A DNA stretch of 23,695 nucleotides, from assembly GCA_027491395.1 (NCBI GenBank), contig JAOZFI010000032.1, forward strand, positions 1-23,695. Direction: 5' to 3'. The stretch comes from Thermoproteota archaeon. GTDB lineage: Archaea > Korarchaeota > Korarchaeia > Korarchaeales > Korarchaeaceae. Positions 4,194-14,474 of this stretch are shown piece after piece. Each line of letters starts with the position of its first letter. Position 1 is the first letter of the stretch. The position numbers and the translations under genes are program-made. The notes below the pieces were generated by a model. It had not been told where the DNA came from. It saw only the letters and a program-made list of their open reading frames with translations, and did not search any database.

Positions 4194-5303
4194 ATGACCC
4201 ATCTCAGGTCCCTGTTTACAGGTAACGATCCCCTCTCGGCGGCCGAGAGAGCAGCCATGGCCTCCTTGAGGAGAGGTGGGATCAGCTCGGTTATATGGAT
4301 CGTCACCGAGCGGTGTAACCTCAGATGCATTCACTGCTACGAGGGGGGCAGGATCACGCCAGAGCTCTCCACTGGAGAGGTGCTCAGGGTAGCTGAGAGG
4401 CTGAAGGAGGCTGGTCGACCCCTCACCTTCATCTCCGGAGGGGAGCCCCTCCTCCGGGACGATATAATGATCTTGTTGAGGAAGCTGAAGGAATTTGGAA
4501 TCAGGGTCATCCTGAGCACCAATGGGACACTTGTTGACGAGAAGATGGCAAGAGAACTGGCTGATTCGGGAGTGAATAACGTGGCCATCCCGCTCTACGG
4601 ACCTGAGGATGTGCACGATGCTTTCACGAGGATGCCCGGTTCCCACGAGAGGGTGATCAGAGCCCTCGGACTGCTGAGGGACTACGGCCTGAGCCTGACC
4701 ATAAAGACCGTGGTAGCGAGGAGGGTGCTTCCCCACATCAAGTATCTCTTCGACTTGGCAGTGGAGTACGGAGCTAAGGCCGTATATCTCTGCGACTTCA
4801 TACCGGTAGGCAGGGGTGCCTTGATGAGGGAGGAAGTTCCCTCCAAGGAGGAGTGGAGGTCACTGCTCGACTGGTTCATAGATGAGATGCTCTTGGGTGG
4901 TGCCTACGGGGGGGTGGAGATAGATATAGGGTTGCACCCATCCACCGCCATCTACGTTATGGAGAGGCTCAGGGAAAGGGGTTACGATACCTCCCGAGCC
5001 GAGGAAAGGATGAAGGATAGGAGGCTCTCCGTTGAAGGTAGGGGCTTCATTTCAATCTCGCCCACCGGCGATGTGTACCTGAGCAACTACCTAACGGATT
5101 TCAGGCTGGGGAATGCCCTTCGAGATGACCTCAAGAAGCTCCTGAACCATCCACTGTACAGATCCGCTGGCGACTCCTCGCAGCTGAAGGGTAGGTGCGG
5201 CTCCTGCCCCTACAAGGACATGTGTGGGGGATCGAGGGTGAAAGCATACATCTACACAGGAGACCTCCTAGGAGAGGATCCCACATGCCTCATCCAAGAC
5301 TGA
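4194..5303 (+). CDS. Radical SAM/SPASM protein, AhbC/NirJ-like
   Basis: VIWIVTERCNLRCIHCY (CX3CX2C), SGGEPL, STNGT, C-terminal CGSCPYKDMCGGSR...EDPTC. Confidence 0.85.
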   Translation: MTHLRSLFTGNDPLSAAERAAMASLRRGGISSVIWIVTERCNLRCIHCYEGGRITPELSTGEVLRVAERLKEAGRPLTFISGGEPLLRDDIMILLRKLKEFGIRVILSTNGTLVDEKMARELADSGVNNVAIPLYGPEDVHDAFTRMPGSHERVIRALGLLRDYGLSLTIKTVVARRVLPHIKYLFDLAVEYGAKAVYLCDFIPVGRGALMREEVPSKEEWRSLLDWFIDEMLLGGAYGGVEIDIGLHPSTAIYVMERLRERGYDTSRAEERMKDRRLSVEGRGFISISPTGDVYLSNYLTDFRLGNALRDDLKKLLNHPLYRSAGDSSQLKGRCGSCPYKDMCGGSRVKAYIYTGDLLGEDPTCLIQD

Positions 5304-6457
5304 ACTTAGATGAGAGGCCCATCCTCATTTTCTGGGAGATGACTAAGGCCTGCCTCCTGAAGTGCAGGCATTGTCGTGCTGAGGCCATTCCAGATCCCCT
5401 GCCAGGTGAACTCTCAACGGATGAGGGTAAGAGGCTGGTCGATCAGGTCAGGAGATTCGGTGAGCCCTATCCAGTGCTGATACTCACCGGTGGAGATCCC
5501 CTCATGAGGGAAGACTTGGAGGAGATAGTGAGGTACGCAACTGACTCTGGTCTGAGGGTGGGCATAGCCCCAGCGGTGACCGAGAAGCTCCTGAACTCGC
5601 TGGACATGCTCTCCAAGTACGGCGTTCGCTTCATCTCTATAAGCTTGGATGGCATGAGGGAGACTCACGACTACATAAGAGGGGTTCGGGGCCATTTCGA
5701 GGCCACGCTGGAGTTTCTCAGGATACTAGCAGATGGCAGAGATAGGTGGGTACCTCAGGTGAACACTCTCGTTTCCAAGGAGAGCGTGATGGACCTCCCG
5801 GAAATAGCCCACCTCCTCACAGAGTTAGGCATAAAGATCTGGGAACTCTTCTTCCTAATCAAGGTAGGGAGAGGGGTGGAGCTAACGGACCTATCCCCTC
5901 GAGAGTATGAGGATGTGGTTCACTTCCTCTTCGAGGTCTCCAAGTACGGAATGGAGGTGAGGACCGTCGAAGCCCACTTCTTCAGGAGAGTCTACCTCAC
6001 TAGGAGAGGGGAGGGGATGGAGGGTATAAGTGGCAATGGCGATTACGTGGACGGAATCGCCATGAGGTACGGGTTGGGAGACCTCTACAGGAGGCTCACG
6101 AGGAGACTCATAGACCTGATGGGGCTCCCAATGGGGAAGCCTTCAACGAGGTCAGCTCAAACTAGAGACGGATACGGTATCCTATTCGTCGCATACAACG
6201 GGGATGTGTACCCCAGTGGTTTCGCGCCTTACAGGCTGGGTAACGTGAGGTCTGAGGACATTGTGAGGATATACAGGGAGAATGGGATCCTGAGAAGGAT
6301 TAAGAGGGCCGAATTCAGGGGGAGATGCGGGAGCTGCGAGTATAGACACATATGCGGCGGCAGCAGAGCTAGGGCCCTTGCATTGACTGGAGACATACTG
6401 GGCGAGGATCCTGCGTGCATTTACAGGCCGAACTCGATGGGGTTTGGCGGAAGTTGA
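5285..6457 (+). CDS. Radical SAM/SPASM protein, TIGR04053-like (NirJ/AhbD-related)
   Basis: Start moved to MPHPR (ATG 5285); PILIFWEMTKACLLKCRHCRAEA, LTGGDPL, FFLIKVGRG, DGYGILFV..GDVYPSGF, CGSCEYRHICGGSRARA...EDPAC. Confidence 0.88.
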   Translation: MPHPRLNLDERPILIFWEMTKACLLKCRHCRAEAIPDPLPGELSTDEGKRLVDQVRRFGEPYPVLILTGGDPLMREDLEEIVRYATDSGLRVGIAPAVTEKLLNSLDMLSKYGVRFISISLDGMRETHDYIRGVRGHFEATLEFLRILADGRDRWVPQVNTLVSKESVMDLPEIAHLLTELGIKIWELFFLIKVGRGVELTDLSPREYEDVVHFLFEVSKYGMEVRTVEAHFFRRVYLTRRGEGMEGISGNGDYVDGIAMRYGLGDLYRRLTRRLIDLMGLPMGKPSTRSAQTRDGYGILFVAYNGDVYPSGFAPYRLGNVRSEDIVRIYRENGILRRIKRAEFRGRCGSCEYRHICGGSRARALALTGDILGEDPACIYRPNSMGFGGS

Positions 6458-6996: not shown

Positions 6997-7919
6997 ATGG
7001 TGGGCAGCTTGACAGACGGGCTGACGGATCAGCGACCAAGCGAACCGGTCCATGAACTCCTCTGTAGAGGAGCTAGGGTGAGAGTTAGGGGCTGCAAGGT
7101 CGAGGTAATTACGGATCCCGCTGTAGTCAGCTGTCCCTACGTAAGAGCTGTTTACGGGATAGAGATAGCGGACAGGGAAGCTGTCAGGAAGATAGTCGAG
7201 AGGAAGATCGAGGAGTACGGCCATTTCTGCCCGCACAGGTCCCTGAAGTCCGATAGGATCATTCCATTCGGCAGTTCCGAGATGATAAGCACGGTCATGG
7301 GTGAGATCCTCGATGCTGCGGTGGTGGTTTGCGATGGGGCTGGTACCGTAATCACGGGAAACCCGGAGCTGTTACAGGGCATAGGCGCCGCCATGACCGG
7401 CCTCATCAAGACGACACCCATACCCGAGGTGGTCAGGAGGATAGAGGACATGGGCGGGAAAGTGCTCGATCCGCCGAGGATAGATCAGGTTGAGGGGGTG
7501 AGGAGGGCCTTCCAAGAGGGCTTAGGAAGGTGGCTGTGACTGTAATCGGATTGAACGCGGAGATCATTCCAAAGCTGAGGGAACTGGAGAAGGAGGTTGA
7601 GGGAGCTGAACTAGCGATCTTCTCAACGTGCAACACCCTAGTCCCTAGGGAGCATTTAAAGTACCTAGAGATGGCTGACATAGTTTGCTCGAGCGCTTCG
7701 AGACTGGTTCTTAGGAGGATTGGAAAGAGAGCCCTTATGCAGCTGGGCGTAGGAATACCAGTTTTCGCGCTTACCAGGCTAGGGAGGAGAATTGCCCTCA
7801 GATATCTGGAGGGGATGAAGTCACCGTTCGTGGTATCTAGGGCGAGGATGCCCTACTTGATTGAGGAGAGGCTCCCAATCCCAGTCAAGGGCCGAAGGGG
7901 ATCAGAGCATCGAATCTAG
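6997..7919 (+). pseudogene. DUF2099-family (methanogenesis marker protein 8-like) gene split by a 1-nt frameshift near 7518-7524, or a sequencing error
   Basis: ORF 6997-7539 has SCP, FGSSEM, DAAVVVCDGAGTVIT.NPELLQGIG..MTGLIKTTPIPEV, IDQVEGV; the -1 frame continues LRKVAVTV...CSSAS...QLGVGIPVFALT..G to 7919. Confidence 0.8.
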
Positions 7920-9337: not shown

Positions 9338-9889
9338 CTAGATTTTGGCTCGGTCCCTATTTGCTCTATCGACCTCTCTCCGCTTGGACAAGGCTAGTAC
9401 CATCCTGAGATACTGACTTATCCCTCCTAGGCCTAGGCTGAGAAGTAGCAGCGCGATCAGTACGATGAAGCTTTCCCTTATCACGATGAGGAACGACCCC
9501 AGAGCGACCAGACCACCAAACCTGTCCAACTTTCCAACGCCAGTCACTTTAGCGACGCTGTGAGCGTATAACCCCATTACGAGCATGGAAGCGACAGTCC
9601 CCAAATTTGACATCATCCCAGAATGGGGGTTGGGGATCAGGGCAGCAATCAGTAGGACCGCGCTCATTCCCATCACTAGAGCCGAGAGCAAAGTCCTCCG
9701 GGGATCCGGCCACCTGACCTTCCAAAGAAATATCGAAGCCAGCGCGACAGTTAGTGTCAGGTAAAGGTGGAGCGCGAGGGACAGTCCTACCAGATCGGAA
9801 GTGTAGGATATTAGCGACAGCAGCGGGAAGAAGGCCATCATCCCCGAGATGTCCGCGAGCCTACTCAACCAGACGGCCTTTACTTCCAT
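9338..9889 (-). CDS. Hypothetical membrane protein, possibly DUF996-like
   Basis: 183 aa, about 6 TM; GAGGGAG RBS; segment VAKVTGVGKLDRFGGLVALGSFLIVI. Confidence 0.7.
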   Translation of the reverse strand: MEVKAVWLSRLADISGMMAFFPLLSLISYTSDLVGLSLALHLYLTLTVALASIFLWKVRWPDPRRTLLSALVMGMSAVLLIAALIPNPHSGMMSNLGTVASMLVMGLYAHSVAKVTGVGKLDRFGGLVALGSFLIVIRESFIVLIALLLLSLGLGGISQYLRMVLALSKRREVDRANRDRAKI

Positions 9890-9940: not shown

Positions 9941-11530
9941 TTAGAGGGAAGCGGCCTCTCTAGCCAGCTCCCTCTCCACCTTATCGAGCTCCTCGAAGTA
10001 CTTGGGATCTCTCTCTTGGAGGAGTTTTATCCTCTCGACATAGAGTTCCTCGGAATTCTTAGTGAGCAGATCCCTAACGGAGACGCCGAGCTTCCTAGAC
10101 CCGAACCTGAGGGCCCATACAAGCAAAGCCACCCAGAGCAGGATATAGAGGGCCCATATCATCACCTGCCCCGTTCTGTCCATGGTTATGAGCGCTGGCA
10201 GGAATGTGGTCGGGGAATAAGAGCAGCAAGCCATCAAGCCGTCCCAGAAGTCCCTGGCAAGAGTGTAGGGCAGATAGCCTAGGTAGAAGAACGGCCATAT
10301 CATTAGTCCAGTTATGTAGAGGAGACCTGTCCTTCCATAGTTCCTGAACTCGCATCCCAGCATGAACACGGTACCCATCCCCAAGAGGAAGCCGCCGAAT
10401 ATGTCCATCGGTAGGGTGGTCATCTCCCTTATAGCTACGCCTGTCTTATGGAACTCCAAACCTGTGGCGCGGGCGAATGCCTCGGCGAATTCCTTCGTGG
10501 CCCAGTGATGACCTTCCATTATGCCGAAGAAGGCGAACCCTATGAAGAACGCGGTGCTGGCTATGATTATGTGAACCGCAAGGGCCGTGAAGGGCTGCAT
10601 TCCCATGAAAATGGTCCTTATGGAGTAGGGCATCTTCCATTTCTTAGCGAACTTCAGTTCGTCCTTCTCTATTATGGGACCCATTTCAGCGTTCAAGACA
10701 GCGCACTCCGTGCCTATCCCGGTCTTGGCAACGCTGGCTCCAAGGAGACCGCCGACCACCATCAACATCACTATGTTGGGCAGGTTTTCGATAGTGATCA
10801 TGTGCTTCGCTATCTTTGTCTTGGCAAAGCTTTCAGCCCATCCCATCTGAACCGCGTAGTCGATGCCGAAGAAGGCATTGGCCAGTATAACTAGAGCGAA
10901 CACCGCCCAGAATGCGTAGAGCAGGATCCTCAACCAGTCTCTTCCCGGGTTGTAGTTGAAGTCCAGTGTCAGGCCGTCGGCCCACCCCCTCTTCTTCGCA
11001 TCCTCCACGTACCACCTCGTATCTTGAGACTTAAAGTACTGGACAAGCCCGAATTTGCTCATTATCATTATACCTATTCCAGCCGCTACGGTCGCGGTGA
11101 TCATCACTACGAAGCTCTTCACGTTCATCGCAGCCCAGCCACCTAGCAAGTGGTGTAGCGTGCACCCTCCTGCAACTCTAGTGCCCCAAGCGAACATGAA
11201 GGCTCCGAGAGCGGTGAATACGAGGAACCCCTTTGGATACCTCACCCAGCTCCTTATGTCCTCCTCTAAGTAGGCGAGGACGAGTCCTGTGATTATTGCA
11301 CCCAGTATCACCCATTGGATATCCGGCTGATAGTCCGGTTTTGTGGCGATAAGGCTGTGTCCCGTCAGCCTGGCCTCCATGCCGGCCAGCATCCTAGCCA
11401 TTCCGGATGTTACTCCTATGAACTTGTGCTTAGGGTGCCCTAAGGGGAGGAACCAGTAATTTATGGCCTCAGCGAGGCCGGTAAGCACGCCAGCGGTCCA
11501 CCAGGGCCACTGCTTCTTCAGGAAACTCAT
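9941..11530 (-). CDS. YeeE/YedE (TsuA) family sulfur-compound transporter with reversed half-order
   Basis: 529 aa; WPWWTAGVL, GVTS, LGAFMFAWGTRVAGGC(123), GGLLGASVAKTGIGTEC(276), FGGFLLGMGTVFMLGC(393). Confidence 0.85.
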   Translation of the reverse strand: MSFLKKQWPWWTAGVLTGLAEAINYWFLPLGHPKHKFIGVTSGMARMLAGMEARLTGHSLIATKPDYQPDIQWVILGAIITGLVLAYLEEDIRSWVRYPKGFLVFTALGAFMFAWGTRVAGGCTLHHLLGGWAAMNVKSFVVMITATVAAGIGIMIMSKFGLVQYFKSQDTRWYVEDAKKRGWADGLTLDFNYNPGRDWLRILLYAFWAVFALVILANAFFGIDYAVQMGWAESFAKTKIAKHMITIENLPNIVMLMVVGGLLGASVAKTGIGTECAVLNAEMGPIIEKDELKFAKKWKMPYSIRTIFMGMQPFTALAVHIIIASTAFFIGFAFFGIMEGHHWATKEFAEAFARATGLEFHKTGVAIREMTTLPMDIFGGFLLGMGTVFMLGCEFRNYGRTGLLYITGLMIWPFFYLGYLPYTLARDFWDGLMACCSYSPTTFLPALITMDRTGQVMIWALYILLWVALLVWALRFGSRKLGVSVRDLLTKNSEELYVERIKLLQERDPKYFEELDKVERELAREAASL

Positions 11531-11562: not shown

Positions 11563-11570
11563 TTTATAAG
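11563..11570 (-). promoter_or_regulatory. TATA box for the yeeE-like gene
   Basis: CTTATAAA on the minus strand about 33 nt upstream of ATG 11530. Confidence 0.5.
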
Positions 11571-14165: not shown

Positions 14166-14474
14166 TCAGTCCTTCTTGATGAGGAGAGTGACCAATCCCT
14201 CTTCCGACGAAAGAACCTCTATCTTCGCTCCATAAGCCTTTGCCAAGGCTGCAACTGACTCTATGCTGAACCTAGCGGTCTCGATGGCCACGAGTATACC
14301 TTCTCCTTCCTTGAGTTTTGTGAGGAGGCTGGCCAGCTTCACGAGCGGAACGTAATTGCACTTGTACTGCCGCCCAGTCATAACTACCTTTCCGACCACT
14401 TTGACGTCCTTCAGGGACTGGGGCTGGGATGGAGACCTCAGGGCACCAGTTCCTCCTCCGTCGTCATACGCCAT
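14166..14474 (-). CDS. TusA/SirA/YeeD-like sulfur carrier with an atypical Cys motif (likely start CTG 14441)
   Basis: VVMTGRQYKCNYVPLVKLASLLTKLKEGEGILVAI...SVAALAKAYGAKIEV..EEGLVTLLIKK fits the TusA beta-alpha-beta-alpha-beta-beta pattern; single Cys. Confidence 0.7.
   Translation of the reverse strand: MAYDDGGGTGALRSPSQPQSLKDVKVVGKVVMTGRQYKCNYVPLVKLASLLTKLKEGEGILVAIETARFSIESVAALAKAYGAKIEVLSSEEGLVTLLIKKD

Follow-up and report, generated by a model that had tools for sequence, protein, structure and literature searches.

To our knowledge, the YeeE/YedE proteins are the least understood uptake route for thiosulfate, zero-valent sulfur and probably selenium, and a solved structure exists only for their canonical fused form. 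According to the accessible text on the Spirochaeta thermophila protein (StYeeE; PMC7449682), this form consists of four similar elements in pseudo-222 symmetry, in which the helices H1–H6 and H8–H13 are oppositely oriented in the membrane and connected by H7. The loops LA, LB and LD carry C22, C91 and C293, and thiosulfate uptake requires C91 and C293. The split form YedE1E2 (PmpA/PmpB of Serratia, Cupriavidus and Sinorhizobium) imports zero-valent sulfur and needs both of its cysteines, as stated in the accessible part of PMC10812762. The classification given there comprises YedE1, YedE2 and the canonical fusion YedE3, with no reverse-order class in that part of the text. SoxT1A and SoxT1B of the sulfur oxidisers also belong to the superfamily and are tied to a regulator and to sulfur import or sensing; the available text of PMC11582611 describes them as proteins of 330–350 residues with nine transmembrane helices in the canonical order, encoded in sox/shdr clusters, unlike the protein described here. 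In this study, we analysed a 23,695-nucleotide stretch of DNA (positions 1–23,695 of contig JAOZFI010000032.1, assembly GCA_027491395.1; hereafter “the window”) from a Thermoproteota archaeon of the Korarchaeaceae. It encodes a 529-residue membrane protein, beginning MSFLKKQWPWW, that is currently annotated as a “YeeE/YedE family protein” with a single Pfam domain on its first 150 residues. We found that this protein, hereafter called the transporter, carries the two homologous halves of YeeE in the order opposite to the canonical one, and that its gene is followed by a conserved gene for a six-helix membrane protein.

The transporter is a member of the YeeE/YedE (Sulf_transp, PF04143) superfamily. 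In the Pfam scan of the full protein, the match is confined to residues 3–150, which correspond to positions 172–308 of the 310-position profile (41.3 bits against a cut-off of 27, E 1.8e-10). In the search of the whole genome (1.72 Mb, 98% complete) the same protein scores 47.8 bits, and it is the sole Sulf_transp match. The AlphaFold2 model, calculated from an alignment of 38 sequences, has a mean predicted local distance difference test score (pLDDT) of 87.3 and a predicted template-modelling score of 0.90. When it was compared with 48,161 representatives of the PDB by VIA-align, only YeeE structures gave strong matches: 6lep_A (Z 17.2, root-mean-square deviation 4.5 Å, 282 of 318 residues aligned) and 8j4c_B (Z 16.8), while the next chain reached only Z 5.5. 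The top Foldseek entries are likewise YeeE (E 9e-3, template-modelling scores of 0.46–0.51 normalised to the target). The transporter is thus predicted to adopt the YeeE hourglass fold of four elements, each composed of a transmembrane helix, a loop, a short helix and a second transmembrane helix, as in TsuA/YeeE (E. coli b2013; Spirochaeta thermophila PDB 6LEO, 6LEP, 8J4C and 8K1R). It departs from the canonical YedE3 type (N-half, H7, C-half; nine transmembrane helices; about 330–350 residues) in every one of these respects.

In which order do the two halves stand? Four lines of evidence, none of which depends on the structure, give the same answer: the Pfam and NCBIfam coordinates, a two-by-two matrix of profile–profile comparisons, Pfam matches in 14 relatives, and a tree of half-units. 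The sequence-only reading had matched the N-terminal part to the canonical C-half and the later part to the canonical N-half, and both assignments hold. As described above, the Pfam match of the N-terminal part falls on the C-terminal end of the profile. Consistently, residues 7–145 fall on positions 189–315 of the 330-position NCBIfam equivalog model of TsuA (NF052577), for which the score is 21 bits (first part alone, 25.2 bits) and the cut-off 400. The later part is weakly recognised in the single protein: residues 240–450 alone have no Pfam or NCBIfam Sulf_transp match at E<=10, and the single protein has no phmmer match among PDB sequences at that threshold. The assignment becomes solid through profiles, relatives and the tree.

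We aligned the two parts separately by hhalign, using 48 sequences of the reverse-order clade and 39 canonical TsuA-type sequences, and found the swapped pairing to be the best for each part. The first part matches the TsuA C-half at 98.4% (E 5.6e-15, score 92.7, 91 columns) and the N-half at 41.9% (score 31.5, 22 columns). The second part matches the N-half at 73.2% (E 3e-5, score 37.7, 50 columns), with C393 placed on E. coli C94, and the C-half at 28.2% (score 29.6, 22 columns). Extending the second part to residues 245–490, which includes the last transmembrane helix (TM10), raised the match with TsuA residues 1–195 to 88.3% (E 2.9e-6, score 45.7, 108 columns). In a comparison of the family profile with PDB sequences, positions 86–168 fall on StYeeE residues 245–327 (E 0.001) and positions 382–404 fall, weakly at 4.8 bits, on StYeeE residues 70–92, so that the two stretches are not collinear with StYeeE. 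The motifs on which the initial comparison was built are all in place. Those cited for the C-half (EKRWHPF, GITS, LVLG, GASIAGGC) and the N-half (GALLG, QRGRFC, GGYIFGLG, AGGC, YRAG) are present in E. coli TsuA (NC_000913.3). In the transporter, FLKKQWPWWTAGVL starts at residue 3, GVTS at 39, WVILG at 73 and GTRVAGGC at 116–123, and the later part contains AKTGIGTEC (268–276), GGFLLGMG (379), MLGC (390–393) and GRTG (399).

The relatives show the same order. All 14 distant full-length relatives scanned (415–535 residues) have two Pfam stretches in swapped order. The best stretch is the N-terminus, on profile positions 163–310, in 13 of them; in the remaining one, P0098, it is residues 261–409, on positions 17–156. 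The isolated second halves of gammaproteobacterial homologs match positions 14–149 in three cases out of three (E 1.8e-5 to 2.5e-4), and the genome with locus L072 encodes both halves within a single 501-residue frame in the swapped order. Two proteins of canonical length, P0137 and P0140, match the first part of the reverse-order family with their own C-terminal ends, and their full-length Pfam matches are collinear.

Moreover, a half-unit tree of 57 rows separates the two kinds of unit at its base, with a Shimodaira–Hasegawa-like approximate likelihood ratio (SH-aLRT) support of 99 on each side. The rows were drawn from 6 of the 38 main-family sequences, 8 of the 10 distant relatives, 8 canonical proteins, 4 split pairs and 5 half-size single proteins, and the tree is the product of a quick IQ-TREE search with SH-aLRT as its only support and a midpoint root; three long branches were flagged. 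One clade contains the canonical N-halves, all 14 second parts of the reverse-order proteins and the second genes of the split pairs. The other contains the canonical C-halves, all 14 first parts, the first genes of the split pairs and the half-size singles. Within these clades, the first parts form one group (support 94) and the second parts form another (support 100), and therefore the reverse-order architecture arose once.

A protein with no rearrangement at all, that is, a collinear and highly diverged YeeE whose first half resembles the C-half better by chance, would agree with the VIA-align superposition, which pairs model residues 8–430 with chain residues 3–328 collinearly. Such chance resemblance is conceivable in principle, as the two halves of YeeE are mutually homologous, both according to the accessible text of PMC7449682 and in our hhalign comparison of the TsuA halves (score 32.5). 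However, the collinear structural alignment is not decisive for the order, because the pseudo-222 symmetry lets either register superpose, while every sequence test gives the swapped order. The cross pairing is better for both parts in the matrix, the Pfam order is swapped in all relatives and isolated second halves examined, the tree places none of the 28 reverse-order units on the wrong side, and the canonical pattern of cysteines across the loops is obtained only under the swap. We consider a collinear arrangement hardly credible, and the opposite order of the halves is confirmed. The first and second parts of the reverse-order family match each other at only 0.5% in hhalign, with no internal repeat detectable in the sequence.

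How widely does this architecture occur? A word-indexed search retrieved 74 protein clusters with 57–93% identity, nearly all of 530–545 residues; Asgard archaea, Chloroflexota and Oceanithermus are among the sources named in their labels. Scanning 185,579 species genomes with a sequence pattern yielded 110 encoding loci, and the locus counts given below are based on the 80 that were kept. The archaeal loci in this set belong to Thermoproteota, Thermofilaceae, Pyrodictiaceae and Thermococcus; the other loci come from Caldilineae/Anaerolineae, Melioribacteraceae, Calditrichota, WOR-3 and Thermaceae. A second group, with about 33% identity and about 480 residues, is mostly gammaproteobacterial. 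Archaeal and bacterial members of the main family share at least 57% identity. The reverse-order clade is small and lies far from the bulk of the YeeE proteins, because an exhaustive profile search of 1.84 billion representatives returned 74 matches at E<=0.001. Its occurrence is patchy in the sample of its own phylum: besides the genome studied here, 7 of 20 further genomes from the same genus carry it, as do 2 of 5 from the sister genus, and none of 17 others does. Our literature searches, with subscription journals and supplements outside their scope, found no paper on a reverse-order form of YeeE.

The sequence-only reading had called the protein circularly permuted. The swapped order stands, but permutation as the mechanism does not follow from it. 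In four genomes of different phyla, we found the two half-units as two adjacent genes, with the C-half-like gene first in every case. The C-half-like genes encode 167–195 residues with a GAR-x-A/G-R/G-GCTSG loop, and the N-half-like genes encode 154–303 residues with a GG/GA-x-CPG loop and, in three of the four, a fifth hydrophobic segment resembling TM10. This order agrees with the accessible text of PMC11582611, in which PmpA matches the C-half of YeeE and PmpB the N-half. The split proteins thus share the unit order of the transporter. They differ from it in being two proteins rather than one fused 529-residue frame with a linker helix, and in having one cysteine each rather than three (PMC11582611 and PMC10812762, accessible parts). 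On a simple reading, canonical YeeE would be a fusion of a PmpB-like unit (five transmembrane helices) to a PmpA-like unit (four), with no extra helix needed, and the present protein would be a fusion in the native gene order, PmpA-like and then PmpB-like, with one linker helix added. From the sequences, such a fusion appears at least as likely as circular permutation of a canonical gene, in which duplication and trimming would lead to an identical arrangement. The half-unit tree gives no supported relation among the reverse-order, split and canonical groups, and does not place the reverse-order units as sisters of the split genes.

Next, we examined the residues of the proposed pathway in 48 sequences (38 of the main family and 10 distant reverse-order relatives). 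T41, E89, R118, G122, C123, T124, H127, K269, G273, C276, G392, C393, E394, R396, Y398, R400 and G402 are invariant in all 48. These residues define the signature of the clade, GTR-x3-GC-T-x2-H, K-x-G-x-G-T-E-C and G-C-E-x-R-x-Y-x-R-x-G, because they are invariant throughout. The transporter has five cysteines in total, at 123, 276, 393, 435 and 436. The first three are the invariant ones, and the proposal that the three cysteines of YeeE are retained is borne out in that C123 and C393 align with E. coli C302 and C94 (Table 1); the C393 stretch is also the one aligned with StYeeE residues 70–92. Only with the halves swapped is the canonical pattern reproduced, in which the C-like unit has a cysteine-free first loop and the three remaining loops carry one cysteine each. 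As in TsuA/YeeE, the three cysteines lie on three of the four central re-entrant loops, and the GGC and GC loops are shared together with the following arginine (YRAG in TsuA, YGRTG in the transporter). Unlike in TsuA/YeeE, glutamates flank the two inner cysteines and a His-His pair follows the outer one.

Among the unusual His and Cys motifs to which attention had been drawn (HPKHK at residue 32, CTLHH at 123, GHHW at 340 and CC at 435–436), H127 of CTLHH is invariant in all 48 sequences, while HPKHK and GHHW are features of the main subfamily: H35, H320 and H341 are present in 38 of 38 members and absent from the 10 distant relatives. The C435–C436 pair is not a family feature, because it is found in 5 of the 38 aligned members. 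P0098 (415 residues) forms, with P0091, P0097 and P0099, a third and shorter reverse-order subfamily. The GGC and TEC motifs read GGD and IEW in P0098, which removes two of the three pore cysteines and leaves the one on the GC-D/E-x-R loop; judging from these replacements, the cysteine relay of P0098 is probably changed or lost.

These residues could also be read as a metal or metal–sulfur site, in which case the protein would move a metal ion or a metal–sulfide complex. H35, H126, H127, H320 and H341, beside C123, do not vary within the main subfamily. E275 and E394 flank C276 and C393, and a gene for the zinc transporter ZupT lies two genes downstream in the window. However, ZupT is nearby in only 1 of the 80 related loci, four of the five histidines are not kept in the distant reverse-order relatives, and the protein has no metal-related family match, its only strong relatives being sulfur transporters. 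Transport of a metal species is accordingly very improbable.

The model shows how the reversed units are accommodated in one chain (Table 1). Residues 11–159 form the C-half-like unit, with four transmembrane helices and two re-entrant loops: the GVTS loop and the GGC123-T-L-H126-H127 loop, the latter aligned with the GGC302 loop of E. coli. Residues 160–249 form the linker. Residues 250–424 form the N-half-like unit, again with four transmembrane helices and two re-entrant loops, namely K269-x-G-x-G-T-E-C276 and G392-C393-E-x-R-x-Y-x-R-x-G; it is interrupted by insertions at residues 277–311 (after C276) and 336–372 (after TM7). The linker, for which no family match beyond chance was found, contains an amphipathic helix, a new transmembrane helix and a short outer segment, and its model helices span residues 172–180 and 199–221. 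The latter is the added linker helix that had been anticipated from the sequence. The charged helical tail of about 48 residues (helix 485–525) is predicted to be cytoplasmic. In all, the model has ten transmembrane helices, compared with nine in canonical YeeE: the linker helix is new and an H7-like helix comes last. About 180 extra residues are accounted for by the linker, the two insertions and the C-terminal tail.

The H7-like C-terminal helix had not been recognised in the sequence-only reading. When it is included in the profile comparison of residues 245–490 with TsuA 1–195, TM10 is in register with canonical H7; neither TM10 alone (6%) nor the linker helix alone (2.8%) matches H7 significantly in hhalign. 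TM10 may therefore be regarded as the positional equivalent of H7.

Table 1. Features of the transporter gene and its downstream neighbour (positions in the window)
Feature	Positions	Strand	Assignment	Basis
Transporter, whole open reading frame	9941–11530	minus	Reverse-order YeeE/YedE-superfamily membrane protein	PF04143, AlphaFold2 model, VIA-align
First part, residues 1–165	11036–11530	minus	Canonical C-half, H8–H13	Pfam, hhalign, tree (SH-aLRT 99)
Linker, residues 166–244	10799–11035	minus	No counterpart in canonical YeeE	Model helices
Second part, residues 245–430	10241–10798	minus	Canonical N-half, H1–H6	hhalign, Pfam on relatives, tree (SH-aLRT 99)
C-terminal part, residues 431–529	9941–10240	minus	TM10 (residues 452–481) and charged helical tail	Model helices
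Cys123 codon	11162–11164	minus	Equivalent of StYeeE C293 and E. coli C302, loop LD	Invariant in 48/48, aligned
Cys276 codon	10703–10705	minus	Proposed equivalent of StYeeE C22 and E. coli C25, loop LA	Invariant in 48/48
Cys393 codon	10352–10354	minus	Equivalent of StYeeE C91 and E. coli C94, loop LB	Invariant in 48/48, aligned
Partner gene	9338–9889	minus	183-residue six-helix membrane protein without known family, 51 nucleotides past the transporter stop	

Both termini are probably inside. Under the topology with both termini inside, the count of lysines plus arginines over the 38-sequence alignment is 25.6 inside and 11.3 outside, and the bias holds in all 38 sequences; with the termini excluded, the counts are 14.3 and 11.3, and the bias holds in 35 of 38. 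With this topology, each unit would keep the membrane orientation it has in YeeE. The loops of the C-like unit would then enter from the outside and those of the N-like unit from the inside. The linker helix would be needed because, given the orientations described in the accessible text of PMC7449682, a unit ending inside must be joined to a unit starting outside.

The transporter gene is accompanied by a second conserved membrane-protein gene, which the sequence-only reading had not noted. Using hidden Markov models built from the archaeal and the bacterial versions, we detected this partner in 66 of 70 loci of the main family. Two of the four loci without a match offer no space for it downstream, so that the count becomes 66 of 68, in archaea and several bacterial phyla. 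Every match lies on the same strand as the transporter gene and starts at most 400 nucleotides from its stop codon. The partner proteins are hydrophobic and about 170–200 residues long, and the versions from archaea are homologous to those from bacteria (hhalign 97.3%, E 2.2e-11). The model of the partner has six long helices (pLDDT 95.2). It has no Pfam or NCBIfam match, and its best score in the ESM Atlas was 0.86, with no family. Fold searches matched a designed six-helix barrel (Z 12.5), human TMEM45A (Z 12.4, 167 residues) and a succinate–acetate permease (Z 9.7); these candidates were rejected, and no family was given to the partner, because such Z values are within the range common for helical bundles. 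From its co-inheritance, we propose that the transporter works with this protein, possibly in physical association.

Does the genomic neighbourhood indicate a substrate? Where TsuA/YeeE has a YeeD/TsuB neighbour, the recurrent neighbours of the reverse-order loci, as clustered from open reading frames of at least 70 residues, include no such gene but do include the six-helix partner. A LysR-type regulator is encoded within 3.5 kb in 37 loci, and is adjacent and divergent in 21 of those. Sulfur-related genes recur in particular lineages. The gammaproteobacterial loci (n=10, L072–L081) lack the partner; 9 of the 10 have a PCO/ADO-type thiol dioxygenase gene downstream and 9 of the 10 a rhodanese gene, and the representatives of both have N-terminal hydrophobic leaders. 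In the same group, a small TPR protein is encoded upstream in 7 loci and an alpha/beta hydrolase in 5. Thioredoxin is encoded near the transporter in 4 loci. ComA, the sulfite-using phosphosulfolactate synthase, is encoded nearby in five Thermoproteota/Thermofilaceae loci (L007–L011), where it is fused to a C-terminal winged-helix DNA-binding domain (for example, L008:4768-5844). SufS and peroxiredoxin genes lie upstream in 5 of the 80 loci, including the window; all are close relatives, and this synteny was rejected as a general feature. No sox genes were seen among the recurrent neighbours of the 80 loci.

The main rival to a sulfur substrate, owing to the LysR neighbours, is the transport of a selenium species (selenite or selenide), as in the selenium-associated YedE/FdhT branch. 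YedE/FdhT belongs to the same superfamily and has the canonical unit order. We scanned six of the 37 LysR neighbours, and in all six the top NCBIfam model was NF040786, the selenium metabolism-associated LysR; yet none of their scores (80–237 bits) reaches the cut-off of 250, and in some cases other LysR models follow closely. SelD scores above the cut-off in 2 of 5 carrier genomes. These two SelD genes, in bacterial carriers (G044:C5:51279-52274 and G047:C53:18790-19725), have one in-frame TGA each, consistent with a selenocysteine-containing SelD. In contrast, the genome of the present transporter, 98% complete, lacks SelD (best match 59 bits against a cut-off of 125), and so do the Thermococcus and Thermaceae carrier genomes. 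Selenium is an unlikely substrate in this genome because there is no SelD. Moreover, the transporter scores 11.6 bits against the YedE/FdhT model (NF033796; cut-off 350). We therefore judge selenium transport to be improbable.

The same regulators, in 37 loci, could suit a sensor or signal transducer, or a protein that exports or detoxifies reactive sulfur species, comparable to SoxT1B for signalling. SoxT paralogs have different roles, one in import for oxidation and the other in signalling to the regulator, according to the accessible text of PMC11582611, and peroxiredoxin or thioredoxin genes are neighbours in some of our loci. In addition, the reverse-order gene is found alongside split pairs or a canonical gene in four of the six carrier genomes examined (G043, G044, G046 and G047; no such copy is present in G000, the genome of the window, or in G045), which suggests a distinct, non-redundant role. 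Against a sensor, the pore cysteines and the charged residues that flank them are strongly constrained over the archaeal–bacterial divide, as fits a conducting pathway, and no sensor or kinase is conserved as a partner. Against export, YedE1E2 is reported to import zero-valent sulfur, not to export it (PMC10812762, accessible part). A role in sensing or export thus seems unlikely.

Most likely, then, the transporter provides a cysteine-lined pathway for reduced inorganic sulfur species. This reading is based on the superfamily, the fold, the cysteine triad with its flanking Arg, Glu and His residues, and the sulfur-enzyme neighbours that vary by lineage. In the mechanism that we propose, the protein would have ten transmembrane helices and four re-entrant loops in an hourglass fold, in the order C-half-like unit (H8–H13), linker helix, N-half-like unit (H1–H6), H7-like helix and cytoplasmic tail. 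Three of the four central loops would carry a cysteine each, C123 on the outer side and both C393 and C276 on the inner one. Through the thin centre of the protein, this triad would pass on the reduced sulfur, be it thiosulfate or polysulfide/zero-valent sulfur, in a relay like those proposed for TsuA/YeeE and YedE1E2. The six-helix membrane protein encoded downstream would work with the transporter, and the bacterial copies would be under the control of the neighbouring LysR-type regulator. For the whole of this explanation, a reverse-order YeeE with cysteine-lined transport of reduced sulfur and a six-helix partner, we estimate a probability of about 0.55.

Several observations weigh against it. 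All six LysR neighbours scanned are closest to a selenium-associated model, albeit below its cut-off. The sulfur-related neighbours differ between lineages, each being limited to a small number of related loci. Among the recurrent neighbours of the 80 loci, which were compared by clustering open reading frames of at least 70 residues with no scan by a TusA profile, no conserved TusA/YeeD-like partner appeared, while YeeD is described as essential for YeeE in the accessible part of PMC11073785. The transporter is not a TsuA orthologue, because its score is so far below the equivalog cut-off, and its second half is too diverged for Pfam to recognise in the single protein. The equivalence of C276 with E. 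coli C25 is suggested by its position on the first re-entrant loop and by the Pfam matches of relatives that start at position 14. Finally, the positive-inside signal is modest without the termini.

A weak TusA-like open reading frame is present in the window itself, about 2.6 kb upstream of the transporter gene (14166–14474, minus strand, 102 residues; 21.3 bits, below the cut-off). It has a single cysteine, in KCNYVP, and no NCBIfam match, and is followed on the same strand by a 218-residue membrane protein, SufS, peroxiredoxin and the transporter. It may belong to a lineage-specific sulfur-relay cluster. In the 205-nucleotide gap between the peroxiredoxin and transporter genes, a TTATAAA sequence (11563–11569, minus strand) lies 33–39 nucleotides upstream of the ATG. 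It is plausibly an archaeal TATA box, in which case the transporter gene would have a promoter of its own and a short leader.

A fuller picture can be sketched, which we hold only tentatively as a joint proposal. The transporter and its partner would form a two-subunit membrane machine that has spread by horizontal gene transfer among hydrothermal archaea and bacteria. Its substrate would be polysulfide or zero-valent sulfur, imported by way of an outer Cys/His/Lys site and an inner, Glu-flanked cysteine pair, with no TusA-type acceptor involved. Architecturally, it would stand as a fourth class beside YedE1, YedE2 and YedE3, having arisen by the fusion of a split pair in its native gene order.

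By its gene content the window looks archaeal, as it also encodes an aldehyde:ferredoxin oxidoreductase and PIN and HEPN/nucleotidyltransferase proteins, together with a DUF2099 protein. The latter (PF09872, 257 positions) is split over two overlapping frames, 6997–7539 and 7530–7919 on the plus strand, which match profile positions 6–163 and 166–254; a frameshift, a sequencing error or a natural split could account for this. Two radical-SAM frames on the plus strand (4194–5303 and 5195–6457, first-start calls) overlap by about 100 nucleotides, and the first has a weak SPASM match.

What we describe is an architectural novelty within a known transporter family, accompanied by a conserved partner that belongs to no known family; it is not a new kind of system. 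The present annotation hides both the reverse order and the partner. A natural fusion in the reverse order that keeps the three pore cysteines and, probably, the orientation of the units indicates that both units act as functionally autonomous modules, which can be linked either way round, and it provides a natural test of the features that the pathway cannot do without. In the gene neighbourhood, the near-obligate six-helix partner would take the place of the soluble YeeD, which suggests that the substrate is received or gated differently. Many source records of the family are labelled as hydrothermal or sediment metagenome bins. Because of these labels and the high identity across the two domains of life, a role of this family in sulfur acquisition may matter in hydrothermal and sediment communities.

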